From contig JAQVTI010000001.1 in the NCBI GenBank assembly GCA_028700115.1, forward strand, positions 1 to 32,000: DNA of 32,000 bases, read 5' to 3'. The notes under the pieces are model-generated. The model was not told the DNA's origin. It saw only the letters and a program-made list of their open reading frames with translations, and made no database searches. Source of the DNA: Candidatus Iainarchaeum sp. (lineage in GTDB: Archaea; Iainarchaeota; Iainarchaeia; Iainarchaeales; CSSED10-239). How positions within the stretch are numbered: position 1 is the stretch's first letter; the number at the start of each line of letters is the position of its first letter. Shown here in pieces: positions 2,241-15,243 of this stretch. A program made the translations under genes and the position numbers.

Positions 2241-4856
2241 TTATTTCTTTTTCTTAGAAACATTTTTCTTTTTTATATTTTCTGGGTTTGCTTTAATTTT
2301 ATTTTTAATAACTGGCTTATTAGATGATTTAGGCTTATTATTTAAAACATAAATACCCCCAACTACTAAAATTATAGCAATAAGACCTAATAAAATATAT
2401 AATCCAAGATTATTAGTAGGACTTTTGGCAATACACACACATCTTTCTTGATCTAAAAGAGTATCTTCTGGACATTTAATATCACAAACATTATTTTGAC
2501 CTCTAATAGAATTATTTAAATCATTTGAATCATTAGCTAAATCATTAGCTAAAATATTTGAATCATTAGCTAAAATATTTGAATCATTAGCTAAAATATT
2601 TGAATCATCTAAATAATTAAAATCAGAAAAAGGATTTAAAATATTAACATCATTATTTCCATCATTAGAACCAGGATTTGATATTAAAATATCTTTTTCA
2701 CAAATACAATTAACTTTATCTAAAATATATCCAGAAAGACAACTTAAATTACATTCACAAACAAAATTATTATTACAAATATAATTATTATTACAATCAG
2801 AATCAACCATACAACCAGCAGGGTTTGCAATTAATGCAAATTCTGAAAAAGAATCAACTTCTATTGAATAAAACCTATAATTTTGATTTTCTCCTTCATA
2901 TTTTACTAAAATTTCTTCCCACACATCTTCATTTTTATGCAAAACTTCAATTCCATCTATTGGAATTTGTAAATTATCTAAATCTGAAATTAATAATTTA
3001 AATTTAATTTTCGCATTTTTAAAATTATATTCTTGATCATAAAAAGGTTTTTTAATATCCATACAAAATAATGCATTATCTAAAGAAGAATCACAAGTTA
3101 AAAAAGAAATAGGATAACTTAAAAAGTTTATTAAATCTTCTTCTTGTGTTGTTACAACAAAAGAATCAATATAACTAGGAGTATTTTGTAAGGTTTGTAT
3201 AAATATTTGACTTAATTCAGGGAAAGGCAAATCTGAATAATACACACTACTATATCCATCTGAAAAAATTCCAAGATCTATTATAGAATAATCTTTTAAA
3301 ACAATAATTCCATCTTTTAATTCTTTTATAAATCTAGGAAAACTAACTTTCCCATCTTTATCTATAGATGTTACTAAAATAATTTCATCAGTTTCTGGAT
3401 CTATAAAAATAAATTTATGGTTAGAAATAAAATTATTATTACTATCTATTAAATTAAATTTAATATTATCATATTCTGCAACAACAGAATAAGAGGAAGA
3501 AGAATCTAAAAAAATTGTATTTTCTAAAGGATTAATTTCTGAATCTGTAATCATTACAAGCCCATTATTAATAAAAAATGAATAATCACAATTATCCAAA
3601 ATTTGATTAGACAAAGAAACAAAAGCACCATCAGAAATATCATAACATCTGTCTGCCCCAAAAGATAGATTAAAATAATTATTTACAAAAAAGGAAGTTC
3701 CTTTAATAGAAACAATTGTGTGATCTGGAAAATATTCTACACCATCAAAAATATCAAAAAATTCACCTACTGAAGAATCTAAATATATTGAATAAATGTT
3801 TTTTTCATTAAGTGAATTTAATGAAAAAATTTCAAATGTATCTTTTATTTTAATATTACAATTATCCCCAAAAACACCATATACTTTTTCAGAAGAAGAA
3901 ATATCATCAATTATAACTGAATTATTAAATAAAACATCATTATTTCCAGAAATAAAAATCCCATATGCATCTAAAATATTAGCTTCTAAATTTTCTATAT
4001 TTGTAATATTATTAAAGACAATATTATTCTTTAAATTATTTATATTATCAATTTTTACTCCATATAAACCTCCTTCAGAATTTATATTTGATATTAAAAC
4101 AGAATCATTTAAAGATACATTAGAATCTATAATCCCTAAACCAATAGACATAGAATTAGAATTAATATTAGAAATTAATAATTCTGAATTAATTATAATA
4201 GAATTTTTAATATTTTCAAAATTAATACCAATAGATAAAGAATATTCTTGAGATGAAGTAATTGAAGAAATATCTAAATTAGTAATTTCAGATAAATCTA
4301 AATTTTCAACATTATAAAATCTAATTCCAACAGAATTATTTATCCCAGAAATATTTGAAACAGAAATATTTCCTTTAACAGAGACATCTGAAGAATTTGA
4401 AATACTTAATCCTGAATTATATAAACTACCAGACATATCACTTATAGAAATATTTTCTAGATCAATATCTTTAGAAGAATATATATTTAACCCATATGAA
4501 CCATTTTTAAATTTTAAATCTTTTAAATAAATATCATTTGAATCAATTATATTTAATAAAGAAGAATTATTAATAATTACATCTCCATAAGTAGTAATTC
4601 CTTTTATAAAAATACCTTTTGTATTATCTATAGAAATATTTTCATTATAAGTTCCATCACATACATTTATATATACACAAGAAGGATGAGCATTCAATGC
4701 TTCATTAATAGTAGTATAATCATATCCAGGACAATTTGTAGAATCCCCAGAATCATTAACATAAACTACTGGATCAACTCTAGTACATGCCCCTAAAACA
4801 GATGGTAAAAATATTAAAAATAAAAAACTAATAATTATAAATTTAGATAATTTCAT
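2241..4856 (-). CDS. Large cell-surface protein: signal peptide, right-handed beta-helix-type repeats, Cys-rich modules, C-terminal transmembrane anchor and Lys-rich tail
   Basis: N-terminal signal MKLSKFIIISFLFLIFLPSVLGAC. There are many short repeats of the ISNSSDVSVKGNISVSNISGINNSVGIRF type (beta-helix/NosD-like periodicity). Cys-rich segments include CMVDSDCNNNYICNNNFVCECNLSC and CDIKCPEDTLLDQERCVC. The anchor is LGLYILLGLIAIILVVGGIYVL followed by a K-rich tail. Confidence 0.8.
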   Translation of the reverse strand: MKLSKFIIISFLFLIFLPSVLGACTRVDPVVYVNDSGDSTNCPGYDYTTINEALNAHPSCVYINVCDGTYNENISIDNTKGIFIKGITTYGDVIINNSSLLNIIDSNDIYLKDLKFKNGSYGLNIYSSKDIDLENISISDMSGSLYNSGLSISNSSDVSVKGNISVSNISGINNSVGIRFYNVENLDLSEITNLDISSITSSQEYSLSIGINFENIKNSIIINSELLISNINSNSMSIGLGIIDSNVSLNDSVLISNINSEGGLYGVKIDNINNLKNNIVFNNITNIENLEANILDAYGIFISGNNDVLFNNSVIIDDISSSEKVYGVFGDNCNIKIKDTFEIFSLNSLNEKNIYSIYLDSSVGEFFDIFDGVEYFPDHTIVSIKGTSFFVNNYFNLSFGADRCYDISDGAFVSLSNQILDNCDYSFFINNGLVMITDSEINPLENTIFLDSSSSYSVVAEYDNIKFNLIDSNNNFISNHKFIFIDPETDEIILVTSIDKDGKVSFPRFIKELKDGIIVLKDYSIIDLGIFSDGYSSVYYSDLPFPELSQIFIQTLQNTPSYIDSFVVTTQEEDLINFLSYPISFLTCDSSLDNALFCMDIKKPFYDQEYNFKNAKIKFKLLISDLDNLQIPIDGIEVLHKNEDVWEEILVKYEGENQNYRFYSIEVDSFSEFALIANPAGCMVDSDCNNNYICNNNFVCECNLSCLSGYILDKVNCICEKDILISNPGSNDGNNDVNILNPFSDFNYLDDSNILANDSNILANDSNILANDLANDSNDLNNSIRGQNNVCDIKCPEDTLLDQERCVCIAKSPTNNLGLYILLGLIAIILVVGGIYVLNNKPKSSNKPVIKNKIKANPENIKKKNVSKKKK
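2523..2610 (-). repeat. 21-bp in-frame tandem repeat inside the surface-protein gene (encodes SNILAND units)
   Basis: The + strand reads atttgaatcattagctaa / atcattagctaaaat / atttgaatcattagctaaaat / atttgaatcattagctaaaat / atttgaatcatct. The protein reads DSNILANDSNILANDSNILANDLANDSNDL. Confidence 0.9.
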
Positions 4857-6292: not shown

Positions 6293-8875
6293 TTAACAAG
6301 AATTTTTTTTAAAAATACCATTTATAAAATTTGTAATTGGAATAACTAAAATAGAAGAAATCCCAAAAATAAACAAATAAATCCAATGTATAAAAGATAA
6401 TGGAACTAATCTAAAAATATTTTGGAAAAAAGGAACATATATTACAATTATATGTAAAGCAATAACTAATAAAACACTATAAATTAATAACTTGTTTGAA
6501 AGAAGATGTTCTCTATCAAACTTACCTTCAATATTACAAACAAACGCAAAAAACAATTCAAAAATTACAATCCCTGATAAAATAAAAGTCCTTGCATAAG
6601 AAGAAACATCTAAATCAAAAGAATTAATACCAAAAGAAAAATCTAAACCTAATCCATATGAAAAAAGAATTAATTCCCCTATAATTTTTACAAATAAAGC
6701 AACAATAATAAAAACAGTAAAATTATGTAAAATGCCTTTATTTGGATCTCTAGGTTTTCTAAACATAATATCTTTAGAAGCCTTTCTTCTTCCAAGAGCA
6801 ATTGCAGGAAGAGAATCTGTAACCATATTTATCCATAAAATTTGTAAAGCTAAAAGAGGTATTGGAAAATTAAATAAAATCAATAAAACAACAGTTAAAA
6901 GAATATCAAAATTTACAGCAAGCATATATTTTACAAAAAGTAGAATATTATCATAAACTCTTCTACCTTCTTTAATTGCAGAAACAATACTTGAAAAATT
7001 ATCATCTTTTAAGACAATATCAGCAACTTCTTTTGTAGCTTCAGTACCTTTAATACCCATAGCTATACCAACATCTGCAGCTTTAATAGCAGGTGCATCA
7101 TTTACCCCATCTCCTGTAACAGATACAATTTCTCCAGATTTTTTTAAAAGAGTTACAATTCTAAATTTATGCTCTGGTTTTGCTCTTGAAAAAATATCTG
7201 TTTTTTTAATTAACTCTAATGCTTTTTTATCATCTAAAGAATCTAAAATATCAGCATTAACTGCTTTTGGATTTAAAAAACCAATTTCTCTTGCAATAGC
7301 TTGTGTTGTTAAAGAATTATCCCCAGTTATAATTTTAGTTATAATTCCTGCTTTTCTTGAAAGAAGTAAAGCATCTTTAACATCTTTCCTTGGTGGATCT
7401 ATCGAAGCAACTAATCCTAAAAAAATTAAATTATTTTCAAATAAATCATTTTTATTATCTATCTGCCTATATGCAAATCCTAAAACTCTTAATGCATCTT
7501 TAGAATATTTTTCTTCAAAAGAAAAAAAATAATCAATATCTTTTTGAGTAATTTTTCTAATTTTACCATTATCTAATATTTTAGTAGATTTTTTAATTAT
7601 TTCTTGAAAAGCTCCTTTTGAAAACATTTCTAAATTATTATCAACTTTATGAATAGTTGACATCATTTTTCTATCAGAAGAAAAAGGAATTTCATTTATA
7701 AGCTCATAATCTTTTACTCTACCAGATTTTCTAGTTAATACCTTTAAAGCAATTTCTGTAGGATCTCCTATAAATTTATTAATTTCAACTATAGAATCAT
7801 TACAATTTTCACAAATATCTAAAATTTTAAAAAATTCAATATTATTTAAGTCTTGTTTTTTTTCAAAAGAATAACCTGTTCCATAAATTTCTTTTTCAAA
7901 ATTTAAAGAAACAATTTTCCTTGCAGTCATTTCGTTTAAAGTTAAAGTCCCTGTTTTATCAGATGCAATAATTGTTGTTGCACCTAAAGATTCAATAGCA
8001 GACATTTTTCTAACAATAGCATTTTGTTTAGACATTACCTGAACTCCTAAAGCTAAAGTTAAAGTTATAACAATTGGTAATCCTTCAGGAATTGCTGCAA
8101 TTGCAAGAGAAACAGTTATTAAAAAATTATCTATAATTCCAATACCTCTAAAAAGACCAATTACAAAAAGAATAATAATTAAAAAAATCAAAATATAAAC
8201 TATTTTTCTTGAAAGAGAATCTAATTGTTTTTCAAATAAAGATTTTTCAATATTAGTTTCTGAAACTAAATTAATAATTTTACCAAATTCTGTATTTATT
8301 CCAGTAGAAATAACAACTCCTTTTGCTTTTCCAGAAACAATTGTAGTTCCAGAAAAACAAATTACTTCTTTATTTGATTTTAGATTTTTAGAAACTGAAA
8401 CAGACTCACCAGTTAAAATAGATTCATCTACTTTTAAAGAAAAACTTTCAAAAAGTTTAATATCTGCAGGAACTTTATCCCCTTCAGAAAGAATAACAAC
8501 ATCACCAGGAACTAGTTTTTCTACATTTATTTCTTTTTCCTTACCATCTCTTATAACAATTGCAATTTTTGTAAGCATTTTTTTTAAAGAAGAAACTGCT
8601 TTTTCAGCTTTATATTCTTGAATAAAACCAATTATAGAATTAATTAAAACAATTGCAAAAATAACAAAAGCATCTAATTTTTCTCCAATTATAAAAAAAA
8701 TAATTGAAGATATTAATAAAATAACTATTAATAAAGAAGTAAATTGACGTAAAAACATTTTTAAAATAATAAATTTTTTTTTTATTTCAATTTTATTTTC
8801 ACCATATTTATTTAAAAGAATAAGAGCTTGACTTTCTTTTAAACCATAAAATTTAGATTGTTTATTATAAGACAT
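6293..8875 (-). CDS. P-type cation-transporting ATPase, P2 (SERCA/Ca2+-ATPase-like) subfamily
   Basis: It has TGES, the phosphorylation motif DKTGTLT, and GDGVNDAPAIK. It also has the TM4 PEGLP motif and a TM6 LWINMVTDSLPAIALG, which resembles the SERCA LWVNLVTDGLPATALG segment that carries Ca2+-ligand N/T/D residues. Confidence 0.92.
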   Translation of the reverse strand: MSYNKQSKFYGLKESQALILLNKYGENKIEIKKKFIILKMFLRQFTSLLIVILLISSIIFFIIGEKLDAFVIFAIVLINSIIGFIQEYKAEKAVSSLKKMLTKIAIVIRDGKEKEINVEKLVPGDVVILSEGDKVPADIKLFESFSLKVDESILTGESVSVSKNLKSNKEVICFSGTTIVSGKAKGVVISTGINTEFGKIINLVSETNIEKSLFEKQLDSLSRKIVYILIFLIIILFVIGLFRGIGIIDNFLITVSLAIAAIPEGLPIVITLTLALGVQVMSKQNAIVRKMSAIESLGATTIIASDKTGTLTLNEMTARKIVSLNFEKEIYGTGYSFEKKQDLNNIEFFKILDICENCNDSIVEINKFIGDPTEIALKVLTRKSGRVKDYELINEIPFSSDRKMMSTIHKVDNNLEMFSKGAFQEIIKKSTKILDNGKIRKITQKDIDYFFSFEEKYSKDALRVLGFAYRQIDNKNDLFENNLIFLGLVASIDPPRKDVKDALLLSRKAGIITKIITGDNSLTTQAIAREIGFLNPKAVNADILDSLDDKKALELIKKTDIFSRAKPEHKFRIVTLLKKSGEIVSVTGDGVNDAPAIKAADVGIAMGIKGTEATKEVADIVLKDDNFSSIVSAIKEGRRVYDNILLFVKYMLAVNFDILLTVVLLILFNFPIPLLALQILWINMVTDSLPAIALGRRKASKDIMFRKPRDPNKGILHNFTVFIIVALFVKIIGELILFSYGLGLDFSFGINSFDLDVSSYARTFILSGIVIFELFFAFVCNIEGKFDREHLLSNKLLIYSVLLVIALHIIVIYVPFFQNIFRLVPLSFIHWIYLFIFGISSILVIPITNFINGIFKKNSC

Positions 8876-9399: not shown

Positions 9400-10028
9400 T
9401 TAAACTAATTGTTTTTGATTTATGGTCAACTCTTGCAACCAGAACAAATCCACATTATCATTTTTCTATAGAAATTAAAAATGAATTTAAACTAAAATTA
9501 GATGAAAATAAAATAATTAGTATATTTGAAGAAAGTGTTCAAACAAAATTTTGGGAAAATGAATATGATGCTTATAAAGAATTTACTAAAAATATTAAAA
9601 TCCCCCTAACTAAAAAAAATATTTTTAAAATAATAGAATTTAGAGAAAGAGCTGAAAAAAATATTAGACTTTATGACTTTACAATTAAACTACTTAAAAA
9701 ATTAAAAAAAAAAGGATATAAAATAGGTCTTTTAACAAACAGTTCTAGATTTATTTATGATTCTATAAAACAAAAAACAAATTTATTAGAATATATTGAT
9801 TATCCACTGTTTTCATATCAAGTAGGTCTAGTTAAACCCCAAGAATTATTTTATATTACAATACAAGAAAAAGCAAATATAAAAAACCCTAAAGAAATTT
9901 TAATGATAGGAGATAATTACGAAAAAGATTATAAAACTCCAAAAAGTTTAGGTTGGAATGCAATACATTTTAAAAACTCATATAATAATTTAAAAAAAGA
10001 ATTAGAAAAAAATAATATTAAAATTTAA
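9396..10028 (+). CDS. HAD-superfamily hydrolase (subfamily IA-like; haloacid dehalogenase/phosphatase type)
   Basis: Motif I is LIVFDLWSTL, where the second Asp is replaced as in the DxYGTL dehalogenase-type variants. Motif II is GLLTNSS and motif IV is MIGDNYEKD. Motif I starts at residue 8 and there is no in-frame ATG upstream, so a TTG start at 9396 is required. GGGGAT lies 3 nt upstream. Confidence 0.8.
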   Translation: MIKLIVFDLWSTLATRTNPHYHFSIEIKNEFKLKLDENKIISIFEESVQTKFWENEYDAYKEFTKNIKIPLTKKNIFKIIEFRERAEKNIRLYDFTIKLLKKLKKKGYKIGLLTNSSRFIYDSIKQKTNLLEYIDYPLFSYQVGLVKPQELFYITIQEKANIKNPKEILMIGDNYEKDYKTPKSLGWNAIHFKNSYNNLKKELEKNNIKI

Positions 10029-10615: not shown

Positions 10616-11335
10616 ATTCTTGTTAATGAAATTAATGAAAAAGGAGGAATTAATGGTAATAAATTAAATATAGTTTTTGAAGATGGTAAATGTAATAATA
10701 CATATTCAGTAAATTCAATTAATAAATTAATAAATATAGACAATACAAAAGTAGTAATTGGTGGAATTTGTTCATCTGAAACAATTGCAGCAGCACCAAT
10801 TGCAGAAAATAATAAAGTCATTTTATTTTCTCCTGCTTCAGGAAGTCCAAACATAACATATTCAGGAGAGTATATTTTTAGAAATATGGCAAGTGATGCA
10901 TATTCAGGTAAAAAAATTGCAGAAACTGCAGTACAAAATAAACATTTAAAAATAGCAATAATTACAGAAAACACAGAATATGCAATTTCACTTTCTAAAG
11001 TTTTTAGAGAACATTATAATAGATTAGGCGGAGAAATTGTAATTGAAGAAAAATTTGAAACAAATACAAATGATTTTAAAACAATTATTGCAAAAATAAA
11101 TTCAAAAGAAATAGATGCAATATATATAAACCCACAAACTCCACAAACATTTACAATTCTTTTAAAACAATTAAAAGAAAATGGAATTAACAAACAACTA
11201 TATGGAAATGAATATACAAGAAGTAAAGAAGTTTTAGAAAATTTTTCTAAAGAAATTGAAGGAATTATTTTTGCAGAAGCAAACTTTAATGAAAATGATG
11301 CTTTAACAAAATCTAGAACCTTTTATGGGATCTAA
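10616..11335 (+). pseudogene. livK: Truncated LivK-type periplasmic branched-chain amino-acid binding protein (lacks N-terminal signal/start and C-terminal third)
   Basis: This reading frame is open from 10508 with no ATG until 10886. From about 10616 it reads LVNEINEKGGINGNKLNIVFEDGKCNNTYSVNSINKLINIDNTKVVIGGICSSETIAAAPIAENNKVILFSPASGSPNITYSGEYIFRNMASDAYSG..., the typical Peripla_BP_6 core. The signal peptide and first strand are missing, and it ends prematurely at 11335, about 240 aa of similarity versus the 370+ I would expect from memory. Confidence 0.75.
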
Positions 11336-11555
11336 TTTAATGATTAAAGGATTTACTGGAGCTGTAATTGGTGGAATCACTTCAGTTCCCGGAGCAATTA
11401 TTGGATCTTTTCTTTTAGGAATTGTTGAAAATCTAGGAATTTGGTTTTTACCTTCTGGTTACAAGGATGCAATTGCATTTACATTATTATTTATATTTTT
11501 ATTATTTAAACCAAATGGAATTTTAGGAATAAATAAAGGACATAAGAAAGATTAA
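11307..11555 (+). pseudogene. livH: C-terminal fragment (about 75-80 aa) of a LivH-type ABC permease
   Basis: EPFMGSNLMIKGFTGAVIGGITSVPGAIIGSFLLGIVENLG...LLFKPNGILG matches only the last two helices of BPD_transp_2 permeases. The frame opens directly after a stop at 11304-11306 and overlaps the end of the livK fragment in another frame. Confidence 0.7.
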
Positions 11556-11557
11556 GA

Positions 11558-12430
11558 ATGATTTCAGCATATTTAATACATTTATTAATAATTATTTTAA
11601 TTCAATTAATCTTAAGTATGTCTTTACAAATTTCTATTGGATACAGTGGACTTTTAAACTTTGGACATATTGCATTTTATGCAATTGGAGCATATACTTC
11701 TGCTCTTTTAACAATTAATGGTTGTCCTTTTATATTAGCAATAATACTTGCAGGAATAATTCCTTGCATATTTGCATATATTCTATCTATTCCTACAAAT
11801 AAACTAAAAGGAGATTATTTAGGTCTTGCAACAATTGGTTTTTCTTTTTTAATATATGCAGTTTTAATTAATTGGATTGATTTAACAAGAGGACCTTTAG
11901 GAATTCCTGGAATTCCAAAACCTGAAATTTTAGGAATTGTATTTAATAGTAATATTTTATTTTTAATACTTACAATTGTTTTTACAATTTTAAGTTTGTT
12001 TATAATAAATAAAATTATAAAATCTAAATTTGGTTTATTACTTCAAGCAACAAGAGATGATGAAATTGCAGTTAAGTCTTTAGGAAAAAATACTTTTAAA
12101 ATAAAAACAATAGGACTTATGCTTTCTGCTTTTTTTGCAGGAATTGCAGGATCTTTATTTACTCATTTTATAACTTTTATAGATCCTTCTTCTTTTACAT
12201 TTATGGCATTAATCCCAGTTATTTCAATTATAATAGTTGGAGGGTTAGCATCTATTAAAGGAACTATTATTGCAACAGTTGTTTTGACATTAATTCCAGA
12301 AATATTAAGATTTGTAGGACTACCTTCTTCTTTAGTTGGTCCTGGTAGACAAATAATATATGCTTTGATTTTAATTATTATTTTAATATATTTCCCAAAA
12401 GGATTTTATGGAAAAGTAGAATTAGAATAA
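11558..12430 (+). CDS. livM: LivM-type branched-chain amino-acid ABC transporter permease (apparently full length)
   Basis: The N-terminus LSMSLQISIGYSGLLNFGHIAFYAIGAYTSALL and the C-terminus ILIYFPKGFYG fit the full BPD_transp_2/LivM pattern. There are multiple TM segments throughout and the size is about the core length I would expect. Confidence 0.8.
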   Translation: MISAYLIHLLIIILIQLILSMSLQISIGYSGLLNFGHIAFYAIGAYTSALLTINGCPFILAIILAGIIPCIFAYILSIPTNKLKGDYLGLATIGFSFLIYAVLINWIDLTRGPLGIPGIPKPEILGIVFNSNILFLILTIVFTILSLFIINKIIKSKFGLLLQATRDDEIAVKSLGKNTFKIKTIGLMLSAFFAGIAGSLFTHFITFIDPSSFTFMALIPVISIIIVGGLASIKGTIIATVVLTLIPEILRFVGLPSSLVGPGRQIIYALILIIILIYFPKGFYGKVELE

Positions 12431-12435
12431 ATAAA

Positions 12436-12490
12436 AACTTAACGCCGAAAAACAGCAAAAAACTATTTTTATAAAGATTTCGGCGTTAAA
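12436..12490 (+). repeat. 55-bp hairpin repeat, copy 1 (attC-like), between livM and fic
   Basis: AACTTAACGCCGAAAAACAGCAAAAAACTATTTTTATAAAGATTTCGGCGTTAAA. There is a perfect 12-bp inverted repeat: TTAACGCCGAAA (12439-12450) and TTTCGGCGTTAA (12478-12489), with a 27-nt loop. It is GC-rich relative to its surroundings. Confidence 0.9.
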
Positions 12491-12497
12491 TATATTT

Positions 12498-13460
12498 ATG
12501 TATTTAACTAAAAAAGTAATTAATGAAAAAACATATTTTTATCTTGAAGAAAAAATTAATAATAAAACAATAAATACATTCATAGGTGTAAATAAAATTA
12601 AAGATCCTAAAAAATTTAAAGAAATATTAAAAAAGCATAGATTAAACATTATTCTTAAAAAAATAAAAAATTCAAAAAAACAAAAATATATATCTACAAT
12701 TGAATTAATAGAACTTGAAAAAATAAAATATAATTTAAAATTATTAAAAAAATATTTTAAAGAAACATATAAACAATATAATGAAAATGAATATATACGT
12801 TATGCACAAGGAAGTGCAACTATAGAAGGAAACTCAATAAATTTACAAGAAGCCACATTAATTATTAATGAAAATTTAACAATTAGTGGTAAAACAATAA
12901 ATGAGGTTAAAGAAATACAAAACCTAAAAAATACTAGAAAAATAATAGATAAACTTCCAGAAATTACAGAAAAATTAATAAAAAAAATACATAAACAAAT
13001 AATGGATTCTTTTAAAGATAAAAACCCAGGAGAATATAGAAAAATACCAATATATGTTACAGGATCAAATATTAAAAGAACAAATTATAAAAATATATCT
13101 AAAGAAATAAATAAATTATTAGAATGGTATAATAAAAATAAAAAAATATTACATCCTATAGAATTAACAGCAATATTTCATATTTGGTTTGAAAATATAC
13201 ATCCATTTATAGATGGAAATGGAAGAGTTGGTAGAGAATTATTAAATTTAATTTTGTTAAAAAACGACTATCCAAGAATAATAATTAATTTAAAAAATAG
13301 ACAAGAATATATATCAATTTTAGAAAATTTACAAATAAAAGGTAAAAAAGAATATATTCAATTTTCTAAATTCATTTATAATTTATTATTAGATAAATCA
13401 AAGGAAATAGAAGAAGAAATTAATAATAATATAGAATTAATTTTAAACAAAATAACTTAA
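12498..13460 (+). CDS. fic: Fic-domain protein (AMPylase family), class II type with an intramolecular inhibitory motif
   Basis: The canonical Fic active-site motif HPFIDGNGRVGR (13200-13235) fits HxFx(D/E)GNGRxxR. Upstream, SATIEG (12813-12830) fits the inhibitory (S/T)xxxE(G/N) motif. No SD-like motif precedes the ATG. Confidence 0.9.
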   Translation: MYLTKKVINEKTYFYLEEKINNKTINTFIGVNKIKDPKKFKEILKKHRLNIILKKIKNSKKQKYISTIELIELEKIKYNLKLLKKYFKETYKQYNENEYIRYAQGSATIEGNSINLQEATLIINENLTISGKTINEVKEIQNLKNTRKIIDKLPEITEKLIKKIHKQIMDSFKDKNPGEYRKIPIYVTGSNIKRTNYKNISKEINKLLEWYNKNKKILHPIELTAIFHIWFENIHPFIDGNGRVGRELLNLILLKNDYPRIIINLKNRQEYISILENLQIKGKKEYIQFSKFIYNLLLDKSKEIEEEINNNIELILNKIT

Positions 13461-13508
13461 CGCCGAAAAACAGCAAAAAACTATTTTTGTAAAGATTTCG
13501 GCGTTAAA
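13454..13508 (+). repeat. 55-bp hairpin repeat, copy 2 (attC-like), between fic and the 3' end of gltX
   Basis: It is 54/55 identical to copy 1; the only difference is G at 13489 versus A at 12471. The fic stop codon (13458-13460) lies inside the repeat. Confidence 0.9.
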
Positions 13509-13539
13509 CAAATTTTTAAAAATAAAAAGAATTTACACA

Positions 13540-15243
13540 TTAATGTGTAAACCAGAAATTATAAACTTTATTTCCATCAACTTCTTCAATTGAATCAAGT
13601 CTACAAAAACCAAATCTCTCAAACTGAATAACTTCTCCAACTTCTAATTGAGAAATATGCTTTTCTGCTTTTGTTTTAATTAATTCATGCTCTGGAGTAA
13701 AAACAGTTACATCAACTAATTGAGAATTATCTTTTGGAAGAAAATGTATTATTTTCTTATTTGAATTTTCTTCTTTTTTAAAATCCATATAATCAATTGA
13801 TTCAAATTCTAGATTATCTAAATCTTTAAATCTAAAATTTAGATTATCCATAAGTCTAATTAATTGTCCTTCTTTAAAAGAATCAAAATCTTCCTTTTCA
13901 ATCAAATAAGTTCCATTTGAAACAAAATCTCTTTTTCCTAAATCTAAATTAGGATGAACTGAAAGAGAATATTTTTGTTTAGGATCATTTTTAATAATAA
14001 TTTCAATTGGATCTTTAACTAAGAAAAATCTTTTTGAAGTATCATTTAAAACTCTTTTATTGCATTTGATTAAAGAATCCCAAGTTAAAGTTGAACCAGA
14101 AGACTTAGTTATTCCTGTCTCAACTAACATATCCTCCATTGCCTTTGGAGAAAAACCTCTTCTTTTTAGAGATGTAAGTGTTGGTAGAGATGGGTCATCC
14201 CAACCAATAAGTTCACCAGATTCAACTTTTTCTCTAATAACTCTACCAGAAGAAAGCATTCCTTCTAGATTAAGTCTAGAAAATTCATATGTAGTTGTAT
14301 CATATAAACCTAATAATTTTCTAATATAATGATGAAGTTCAGAAGCCATTTCAAACTCAACTGTTCTTAATCTATGAGTTACTCCAAAATAACCATCTAA
14401 AACTGAGTTTTGGAAATCATATGTAGGAAATAATCTAAATTTATAACCATGCCTTGGATGTTCTGCATCAATTATTCTAAATATTGTTGGATCTCTCATT
14501 CTTGCGTTTTTGTGAGACATATCAATTTTAAGTCTTAGAGAAGCTTTTCCTTCTTCCATGTCCTTTTTCATTTTCTCCCAATCAATTAGATTTTCCTGAG
14601 GAGATTTATTTCTACAAGCACAGCTTTGTTTTTTGTTTCTGTTTTCAGACATTTCTTCAGGGGAACAAAAACAAACATATGCTTGGTTTTTTATAATTAA
14701 TTTTTCTGCAAAATCTATTAATGTTTGAATATGGTCTGATGCATAAATTAATTTATCCCATTTAACACCAAGCCAAGAAATATCATCTTGCATAACTTGA
14801 TAAAACTCTGGTTTTACATTTTTTGGATTTGTATCTTCAAATCTTAAATGAAATTTCCCATTATATTGTTTTGCAAGTAAATAGTTAAGTAAAATACCTT
14901 TAGCATGACCTATATGATAGTGCTTTTCAGGAGAAGGCGGAAAAGCAGAAACAACTTTTTCTCCTTCTTTAATATTTAAAAATGCAAAAATATTTCTTTC
15001 TTCTTTTTCTTTATTAAAAAAACCAGGATTAATTTTTTTAAGTTCTTCTTTTTGCTCATCTAATGATAATTTATTTATTTCATCTACAATTGGAGACAAA
15101 ACTTCTTTAAGTTCATTTATCTTAGATCTCCATTCTGGAAAATCTTTTAAGATAGCACCAAATATGAATTTCACATTAGCATCTCCTTTATGCTTGATTG
15201 CATTTTCTAATATTTTTTCTTTAAATTTTAAATTATCATCCAT
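13540..15243 (-). CDS. gltX: Glutamyl-tRNA synthetase, archaeal/eukaryotic type
   Basis: HIGH-type motif YHIGHAKG followed by LRFEDTNP. The archaeal-type N-terminal helical extension is present (ENAIKHKGDANVKFIFGAIL..., compare the archaeal GluRS LLNAVKHRGRANPGAVMG segment as recalled). The Cys cluster CFCSPEE...CACRN is present. Confidence 0.93.
   Translation of the reverse strand: MDDNLKFKEKILENAIKHKGDANVKFIFGAILKDFPEWRSKINELKEVLSPIVDEINKLSLDEQKEELKKINPGFFNKEKEERNIFAFLNIKEGEKVVSAFPPSPEKHYHIGHAKGILLNYLLAKQYNGKFHLRFEDTNPKNVKPEFYQVMQDDISWLGVKWDKLIYASDHIQTLIDFAEKLIIKNQAYVCFCSPEEMSENRNKKQSCACRNKSPQENLIDWEKMKKDMEEGKASLRLKIDMSHKNARMRDPTIFRIIDAEHPRHGYKFRLFPTYDFQNSVLDGYFGVTHRLRTVEFEMASELHHYIRKLLGLYDTTTYEFSRLNLEGMLSSGRVIREKVESGELIGWDDPSLPTLTSLKRRGFSPKAMEDMLVETGITKSSGSTLTWDSLIKCNKRVLNDTSKRFFLVKDPIEIIIKNDPKQKYSLSVHPNLDLGKRDFVSNGTYLIEKEDFDSFKEGQLIRLMDNLNFRFKDLDNLEFESIDYMDFKKEENSNKKIIHFLPKDNSQLVDVTVFTPEHELIKTKAEKHISQLEVGEVIQFERFGFCRLDSIEEVDGNKVYNFWFTH

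Follow-up and report, generated by a model that had tools for sequence, protein, structure and literature searches.

The window analysed here is a 32,000-nt stretch of Candidatus Iainarchaeum sp. (contig JAQVTI010000001.1, positions 1 to 32,000, forward strand), in which a single fic gene lies between two near-identical inverted repeats that can be folded into hairpins. In the following, one such repeat is called the element. The original prediction, made from the letters alone, took the two copies for attC sites of an integron and fic for a cassette imported into an archaeal genome. With regard to the host this holds, i.e., the window encodes TFB, ScpA/B as well as archaeal-type GluRS and TyrRS, and NCBI labels the identical Fic protein Candidatus Iainarchaeum. 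The locus comprises the following features.

12439..12489, + strand: upstream element copy with perfect 12-bp arms and a 27-nt spacer; homologues in 13 fic lineages
12439-12450, 12451-12477 and 12478-12489: left arm (TTAACGCCGAAA), spacer and right arm (TTTCGGCGTTAA) of the upstream copy
12466..12476, + strand: TATA-box-like motif TTTTTATAAAG inside the spacer, with TTTATAAA at -30..-23 as counted from the ATG adenine
12498..13460, + strand: fic, 320 amino acids (aa), assigned by motifs and predicted fold to the class II FICD-like adenosine monophosphate (AMP) transferases; Pfam PF02661, E 7.9e-22
13457..13507, + strand: downstream element copy, 50/51 identical to the upstream copy, between the convergent genes fic and gltX
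13457-13468 and 13496-13507: left arm (TTAACGCCGAAA) and right arm (TTTCGGCGTTAA) of the downstream copy, the left one overlapping the fic stop codon TAA
12433..12497, + strand: left member of a 65-nt direct repeat, i.e., the element plus a few flanking bases
13451..13515, + strand: right member of the direct repeat, 94% identical to the left one at a spacing of 1018 bp

The basic description of the pair was correct. The only open reading frame (ORF) between the two copies is fic, and the 51-nt cores of the copies differ at one position (A/G in the loop). Each copy combines a perfect 12-bp stem with a 27-nt A/T loop, the outer 7-mers read ACTTAAC...GTTAAAT in the upstream and ACTTAAC...GTTAAAC in the downstream copy, no Shine-Dalgarno sequence precedes fic, and the left arm of the downstream copy contains the fic stop codon. 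From the right arm of the upstream copy, the ATG of fic is 8 nt away. The arms had also been described as the most G+C-rich non-RNA sequences of the window, which is refuted by coding 12-mers with 9 G/C at ~27342 and ~15297. The 12-mer arm occurs exactly four times within the 32 kb; if up to two mismatches are allowed, 7 matches are observed compared to 1.14 expected, a number reached by none of the shuffles (0/100). When folded as single-stranded DNA, the two copies yield energies of -13 to -16 kcal/mol on either strand (z of -4.1 to -5.6 with respect to shuffles). The DNA fold is one continuous perfect 12-bp stem, with a 27-nt loop that contains at most a 5-7-bp A/T inner stem.

Besides being well above background, the element is specific. 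A covariance model of the element finds no copy beyond the pair in the window and a single further one in 214 kb of related DNA, located inside a 1.2-kb segmental duplication of L044 (compared loci are denoted by L numbers). Pattern scans of two whole metagenome-assembled genomes (MAGs) return 2 and 1 copies and nothing beyond the fic-linked ones. Among archaeal DNA, the exact-arm pattern matches only in L001, L003/L022 and L025/L038, and viral contigs show zero matches. We also surveyed 219 kb for inverted repeats (arms of 10 bp with at least 3 G/C, spacer of 20-40 nt); with one exception, the perfect repeats found are fic elements.

A number of simpler candidates could be rejected. A genome-wide repetitive extragenic palindrome (REP), miniature inverted-repeat transposable element (MITE) or terminator is not in accordance with the absence of extra copies from the window, and the non-archaeal exact-arm matches are unrelated G+C-rich bacterial hairpins. 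That is, a generic REP or terminator element behind unrelated genes, named as a counter-scenario from the start, is not observed genome-wide in the window and MAG scans. Nor is the element a general promoter architecture of these genomes, since perfect inverted repeats of such geometry are essentially confined to fic. For a known RNA family, Rfam 15 was searched at E <= 1 over the whole window and reports a tRNA-Asn only, with nothing at either copy; for an H/ACA or other guide RNA, neither a kink-turn nor a consistent ACA box is present (by eye). Finally, the TTAA target-site duplication of a tiny MITE is dismissed because the outer bases in L032 and L051 vary as an inverted, not as a direct, repeat.

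The comparison with other genomes is based on the contigs of 11 Fic homologues plus further loci added by pattern scans. It covers 13 fic lineages with 43-100% protein identity, a locus G+C content of 22-47% and about ten genomic contexts. In 13/13 lineages, a homologous inverted repeat with a spacer of 22-36 nt ends 3-9 nt 5' of the start codon, always in the same orientation. A clear downstream copy is restricted to four related genomes, i.e., the window, L003, L037 and L044, which form the clade of the HAD-gltX island discussed below. L051 shows a borderline remnant, and no recognisable downstream copy is found in the eight lineages L032, L061, L045, L046, L040, L057, L058 and L060. Orthologues with 43-71% identity to the window Fic sit in unrelated neighbourhoods. 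The observed contexts are TrmB/livF, 124-aa ORF/MBL hydrolase, HisRS or methyltransferase/AlaRS, metallophosphatase, FtsZ/deoxyhypusine synthase, tRNA-Arg and M24 peptidase/PIN, AAA ATPase/tRNA-Ser, NAD synthase and a tRNA, DUF6498, and AMP phosphorylase/KsgA. Our data thus support fic as a discrete, relocating accessory gene. Beyond this range the element is lost from sight: the Methanoculleus homologue (32% identity) has none. The Fic homologues in IMG/VR are all distant (no more than 37% identity over the best aligned segment), and the best full-length one (L068) is without the element; a virus-borne module was rejected on these grounds. A phase-variable invertible promoter was discarded as well, the upstream copy showing no orientation polymorphism among 28 independent contigs from seven lineages.

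These observations bear directly on the integron reading, in which the two copies are attC sites and fic is the cassette of an integrase-less attC cluster (CALIN). Like attC/CALIN systems (PMC9668308, PMC9024848), the locus shows a palindrome of ~55 nt that is imperfectly conserved, has outer AAC...GTT ends and occurs in two copies around one toxin-type ORF. The outer 7-mers of the window fit RYYYAAC and GTTRRRY, and AAC...GTT is kept in 10/12 arm sets. Given the CALIN definition of at least two attC sites that are <4 kb apart and recognised by the attC model (PMC9668308), the pair agrees with the formal distance. Furthermore, it counts in favour of this reading that toxin-type cargo is common in cassettes and that archaeal integrons have been described in nine phyla including DPANN lineages (PMC9668308). 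On the other hand, of the 12 distinct arm sets, the window/L003 type is the only one to match both 7-mers in full; the consensus fails, e.g., for L032 (TATTATC/GATAAGT), L051 (AGTTATA/TATAACT) and L058 (AGTTATC/GTTAACT). The stem is continuous, and folding both strands of both copies in search of extrahelical bases reveals no bulged bases, no second box (i.e., no L''/L' boxes) and no unpaired central spacer. A stem of 12-14 bp is also too short for two integrase monomers. While the ORF was thought to be followed by its own attC, the copy inherited with fic lies 5' of the ORF in 13/13 lineages, where it presents a promoter-like motif at a fixed distance from the ATG. An array of varied cargo is missing, i.e., the two window copies, 1018 bp apart, bracket fic only, the two whole MAGs hold no extra copies, and the 214 kb give only the duplication copy of L044. 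With regard to a tyrosine recombinase, no Phage_integrase-type Pfam match was obtained among the window ORFs tested, and precomputed gene tables list none for any lineage up to 10 kb from fic. In its main text, the survey of archaeal integrons (PMC9668308) has 0 occurrences of Iainarchaeota. In contrast to attC sites, the fic element goes with a single gene family, at whose 5' end it lies and whose putative promoter it carries. We thus consider an attC identity extremely improbable. Of the imported-cassette idea, the discrete gene that changes its position (in about ten contexts) is retained; the integron cassette is not supported.

The arms of the element show a clear signal of coupled change. 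Since MAFFT and RNAalifold mis-registered two lineages when applied to the raw hairpins, we counted pairs on arms joined by a constant linker. Here, 83.9% of the cells are paired compared to 69.4 +/- 2.1 in shuffled data (0/500 shuffles reach the observed value), and the arm covariation score is 0.406 vs. 0.138 in shuffles (0/500). Both sides have changed in 7 of the 14 arm pairs, and sliding the partners by 1-3 columns leaves only 31-46% paired. The inner arm sequence depends on the lineage (CGCCGAAA, CCCTCAAA, CACCAAA, CCCAC or ATAACCAA), and the outer TTAAC...GTTAA is mostly kept. The anchors of the two arms are 41-42 nt apart in every lineage (with L061 put on the 42-nt register). L061 has a decayed left arm next to an intact spacer 3' half, right arm and start region, which is the decay pattern to be expected if the promoter half were the more constrained part.

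To describe the spacer, we used a start-codon-anchored, ungapped alignment of 12 lineages, which is free of even a single indel. An invariant TTTTTAA, i.e., a T run plus AA, occupies -30..-24, and TTTAAA ends with its last A at -23; the stretch -11..-2 is A/T-rich, and T/A is found at -1/+1. The Pyrococcus furiosus consensus derived from differential RNA sequencing places the TATA box at -30(WTTTAAAW)-23, i.e., its last conserved A is 23 bp 5' of the start site, the initiator (INR) YR at -1/+1 and the melted region at -11..-2 (PMC6640164). If transcription is assumed to start at the A of the ATG, the fic upstream region therefore has the layout of an archaeal core promoter (TATA at ~-30..-23, pyrimidine/purine at -1/+1). 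For L057, L058 and L060, relatives with 32-47% G+C, there is no other TATA-like stretch within the ~60 nt read 5' of the element. Because of this geometry and the missing Shine-Dalgarno sequence, the fic mRNA is probably leaderless, starting from the ATG. The idea of a promoterless cassette was thus given up, as the loop itself holds a TATA-like box at canonical distance from the ATG. Archaeal leaderless promoters composed of TFB recognition element (BRE), TATA and INR share with fic the TATA position, the YR at -1/+1, the A/T-rich -11..-2 region and the lack of a Shine-Dalgarno sequence; they differ by the A-rich motif, which in fic is shifted ~5 nt from the BRE. Long, co-varying inverted repeats on both sides distinguish the putative fic promoter from the ordinary ones of these genomes.

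The gene product gives a hint at what such repeats may be for. The active site of Fic is marked by the motif HPFIDGNGRVGR, the inhibitory motif reads SATIEG, and H235, P236, D239-R243 and R246 are invariant across 44 Fic homologues. The profile of these homologues matches human FICD in the PDB at E 1.1e-45 as well as 7xux, a FIC-domain protein of 380 residues, at E 8.2e-23. In structural comparison, the AlphaFold2 (AF2) model (pLDDT 93.3) can be superposed on FICD (Foldseek, 2.7e-13) as well as on BT_2513. Judged by sequence motifs and modelled fold, the protein is a class II Fic (FICD-like) AMP transferase. Residues 1-57 are predicted to form an extra N-terminal three-strand sheet plus helix (beta3-alpha, pLDDT 85-93), for which Foldseek reports no significant structural neighbour (best E 0.57); the comparison with the P4-integrase arm-binding domain gives only E 3.1 and a TM-score of 0.47. 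The window Fic and FICD/HYPE are alike in the Fic motif HPFxDGNGRxxR, the inhibitory S/T-x-x-x-E-G/N helix and the fold, but the former comes without tetratricopeptide repeat (TPR) domain or membrane anchor, has a distinct N-terminal domain and belongs to an archaeal host. FICD AMPylates the Hsp70 BiP. The Methanoculleus Fic homologue mentioned above (L064 3001-7029, also L065-L067) adjoins convergent dnaJ and dnaK; together, both facts hint at an archaeal Hsp70 as target of the FICD-like Fic family.

A precedent for a Fic protein that acts on its own promoter is CccR from Yersinia pseudotuberculosis, a class II Fic toxin and autorepressor with the alpha-inh motif SARIEG (PMC9755527). CccR represses its promoter via AGATAATCAT-N26-ATGATAATCT, i.e., two 10-bp inverted repeats 26 bp apart, and its back-to-back dimer holds the DNA-binding domains 70 A apart, which matches the long spacer (PMC9755527). 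The window locus resembles this system in several respects. Both are class II Fic proteins whose N-terminal inhibitory helix has the motif S-x-x-x-E-G, and in both cases the (here putative) promoter is bracketed by perfect inverted repeats with an unusually long spacer, such that 12-N27-12 half-sites enclose the TATA-like box here compared to 10-N26-10 in CccR. In addition, the Fic cores are homologous (E 8.2e-23) if 7xux is CccR, which is probably the case given its 380 residues and a release within days of the CccR paper. The systems differ in that CccR binds through a C-terminal helix-turn-helix (HTH), which the 320-aa window Fic does not have, leaving DNA binding putative here; and that the CccR promoter is of the bacterial -35/-10 type, in place of an archaeal TATA promoter with a probably leaderless start.

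Because of this precedent in the same protein class, we favour a split operator for self-repression. Here, the 27-bp spacer would provide a core archaeal promoter whose TATA-like box directs initiation at or beside the ATG, and the two 12-bp inverted half-sites at ~-59..-48 and ~-20..-9 would bracket this promoter with a dyad axis at ~-34. The element would act on double-stranded DNA as a split palindromic operator. That is, a dimeric repressor, most likely Fic itself, would grip both half-sites, cover the stretch from TATA to start and thereby shut off its own, potentially toxic, gene. Given the arm positions, any arm-bound factor would bracket BRE/TATA and cover the region of RNA polymerase recruitment. 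The arms would change together because both have to fit the same protein, and the spacing would stay fixed because the geometry of dimer and promoter is fixed. Promoter and gene would relocate together as one small accessory module. We regard it as likely that the element is the 5' control region of fic rather than a recombination site; for the promoter-plus-split-operator model as a whole, we see the balance tipped only slightly in its favour.

Several observations weigh against this model. Fic has no HTH and its core is without the C-terminal HTH of CccR, and the N-terminal domain is no more than a candidate DNA binder. A conserved A-rich AAAAC is located at ~-41..-36, i.e., ~5 nt 5' of the published BRE (RRAAA, -36..-32). 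Start site and promoter activity are deduced from geometry, and TATA-like strings are cheap at 78% A+T. Furthermore, the model leaves the function of the downstream copy, if any, unexplained. The remaining objections concern base pairing: perfect complementarity over 12-15 bp with complete turnover of the inner sequence suits a folded nucleic acid at least equally well, G-T pairs are more frequent on the sense strand (six vs. two on the other), and the inner A5/T5 stem gains C-G pairs in some lineages (by eye).

The latter points lead to an alternative in which the element works in folded form, i.e., as DNA hairpin or cruciform or as hairpin of a read-through RNA, serving as bidirectional archaeal terminator or insulator combined with the fic promoter. 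The upstream copy would insulate and drive fic, and the downstream copy would terminate both fic and the convergent gene. Beside the pairing itself (Watson-Crick or G-T) and the G-T asymmetry, this is in accordance with the stable folds (z of -4 to -5.6), the T5-7 runs on both strands of the loop, and the inner A-run/T-run stem, which is also predicted by folding and to which, by eye, L032, L051 and L061 add C-G and L058 adds AGCG/CGCT. All copies in positions other than 5' of fic, namely that of the window at 13457-13507, the solo one of L001 and HP1 of L044 after the Glug gene, are placed either at the 3' end of a gene or between two convergent ones, and many upstream copies follow 4-50 nt past the stop codon of a co-oriented gene. 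However, oligo-T suffices for archaeal termination, which is not known to depend on a hairpin. An RNA terminated at the loop T run would be set free before the right arm is made, and the hairpin would be outside the fic mRNA if fic starts at its ATG. The loop length varies by at most 1 nt across the 13 lineages, a constancy that a simple hairpin does not need. In L003, L044, L057 and L058, the upstream neighbour is divergent, which leaves nothing to terminate. We rate a folded element as unlikely, yet as a rival to be taken seriously.

To trace the second copy, the two genes adjacent to the locus have to be included.

11558..12430, + strand: livM-type permease gene, the last one of a truncated liv cluster; its stop codon ends 8 nt 5' of the upstream element
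13540..15243, - strand: archaeal-type glutamyl-tRNA synthetase gene gltX, convergent with fic; syntenic anchor common to L001 and L003

The stretch from a HAD hydrolase gene to gltX is a variable island common to the window, L003, L037 and L044, the latter three having the right-hand junction in common as well. In L003, 99 nt derived from the fic 3' end (92% identical, now containing stop codons) precede the upstream copy, such that the locus reads (dead fic 3' end)-element-fic-element. This dead fragment identifies the repeated unit as [fic 3' end + element]. L044 has kept ~20 nt of the same fic 3' extension and shows a third element copy along with its 1.2-kb duplication (1166-2372 and 6558-7763, 92.7% identity), which comprises a metallophosphatase gene and is followed by an element in both instances; a Glug-domain gene and a 498-aa ORF are located between the duplicates. 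A dead fic fragment 5' in the window itself was rejected, since the only match is the 8-nt TAGAATTA, indistinguishable from chance.

The copies evolve in concert. They match at 47-50/51 positions within genomes compared to 38-47 between genomes, and the arm-mismatch G of L044 is found in all three L044 copies. That is, copies of the same genome have derived changes in common and therefore exchange sequence. The empty site that had been predicted also exists: L001, a Diapherotrites MAG, has one solo element and no fic at the syntenic HAD...gltX position (124-aa ORF, HAD, small membrane ORF, MBL, gltX). Recombination between direct repeats explains this solo copy as its expected product. We thus propose a partial duplication of the module in tandem in the common ancestor of the window, L003, L037, L044 and L001, which would have produced the order still visible in L003. 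Since then, gene conversion may have exchanged sequence between both copies, and recombination between them would remove fic and leave a solo element.

The downstream copy of L003 (2207-2257) is reverse-complemented in place with unchanged flanks, and its TATA-like box faces the fic 3' end. Minute inversions flanked by inverted repeats are best known from chloroplast spacers. The fixed orientation of the upstream and the flipped one of the L003 downstream copy fit an orientation that is under selection in the upstream copy only. Under the operator model, only the non-essential downstream copy would be free to flip, because the element is itself the promoter region. Overall, the solo copy of L001, the concerted evolution and the in-place flip of L003 are what is known from direct-repeat deletion and minute inversions, with the difference that here the repeat itself is read as a functional promoter region.

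The same history can be told with a different machinery. Here, the element would be promoter and attachment site of a non-integron cassette, and an unlinked host recombinase would recombine element with element. A circular [element-fic] would excise, leaving a solo element, and reinsert at other elements, where the loop promoter would make it self-expressing. This is consistent with the solo element at the syntenic site in L001, with fic between two elements in four genomes, with the third element and the other genes between elements in L044, and with the concerted evolution of copies within genomes. In addition, breakpoints of rearrangements crowd the left edge of the element (the livM stop codon of the window is 8 nt away), fic occupies many different sites, and conservation of the arms is concentrated in the outer TTAAC...GTTAA. 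In L058, element and fic are enclosed by two exact 19-bp copies of the 3' end of a tRNA gene with an intron, an arrangement that looks like a 1.1-kb integrase-less insertion at a tRNA 3' end. The respective tRNA gene (9711-9907) has an intron of ~130 nt, was missed by ARAGORN and ends with the 19 nt GCAAATCCGGGAGGCGGGA; the 19-nt repeats (9886-9904 and 11033-11051) are 1147 bp apart and enclose element and fic only. These repeats are outside the element, however, such that the element is cargo in L058 and not the crossover site. Ordinary homologous recombination between direct repeats of 55-80 bp after one duplication yields the same signs, and the 99-nt dead fic fragment of L003 reflects a duplication of [fic 3' end + element] in place of a clean site-specific junction. 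Arms that are 27 bp apart are unlike the core site of a tyrosine recombinase. Eight lineages carry the upstream copy only, no recombinase is nearby in any lineage (window; gene tables within 10 kb), and only fic is bracketed by elements, save for the L044 segment with its 1.2-kb homologous duplication. Such a cassette thus seems improbable to us. If true, it would be a cassette system of DPANN archaea that works like an integron yet is unrelated to it, with the solo copy of L001, the three-copy arrangement of L044 and the many positions of fic as its footprints.

In summary, the element is real, conserved and specific, and we see it as a duplicated, gene-linked control region and not as an integron site. 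On the favoured reading, it would be a promoter with a split palindromic operator, combined with repeat-mediated gene loss. In the literature searched and in Rfam, no description of the element was found.

We also observed further repeats and gene arrangements in the surroundings. A 20-bp perfect palindrome (TTTACACATTAATGTGTAAA, 13532-13551 of the window) spans the gltX stop codon; its non-coding half is missing from L001 and L003. A G+C-rich motif GGTTAATTTAACCTTCGCTCGGCCTCAGC is located just 5' of the element in L060 (9911-9939), with a related motif in L057 (~9905-9935). An imperfect copy of the GGTTAATTTAACCTTCGCTCGGCCTCAGC motif (~22/29, by eye) is present ~150 nt 3' of fic in L060 (~11112-11140) and is not above shuffle level. 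The truncated liv ABC cluster (10886-12430) consists of a livK fragment (10886-11335, 149 aa), a livH fragment (11325-11555, 76 aa) and the intact second permease; the ATPase genes livG/F are absent. In L032, the orthologous fic adjoins both liv ATPase genes and several binding-protein genes. At the start of the window, an N6/N4 DNA methyltransferase gene (215-1105, + strand) and a TaqI-family restriction endonuclease gene (1074-1775, - strand) are convergent with overlapping 3' ends and resemble a type II restriction-modification pair. Short tandem-like repeats of the AATCATTAGCTAAA type with periods of 9, 12 and 21 nt are found at 2510-2605, inside an ORF of 871 aa (2241-4856, - strand) without Pfam match.

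The results remove a false positive "archaeal integron" from Iainarchaeota, for which the main text of the survey reports none, and imply that matching two attC 7-mers is insufficient evidence in an A+T-rich genome. For a whole family of FICD-like fic genes in DPANN archaea, they define a conserved cis-element, i.e., 12-N27-12 around a TATA-like box. The locus is at the same time a compact natural case of the duplication of a putative promoter, concerted evolution, repeat-mediated gene loss and in-place flipping. If the parallel to CccR holds, self-repression via widely spaced half-sites would be common to bacterial and archaeal class II Fic proteins, and the element would provide a defined operator for studying the control of an AMPylating enzyme in cells with tiny genomes.

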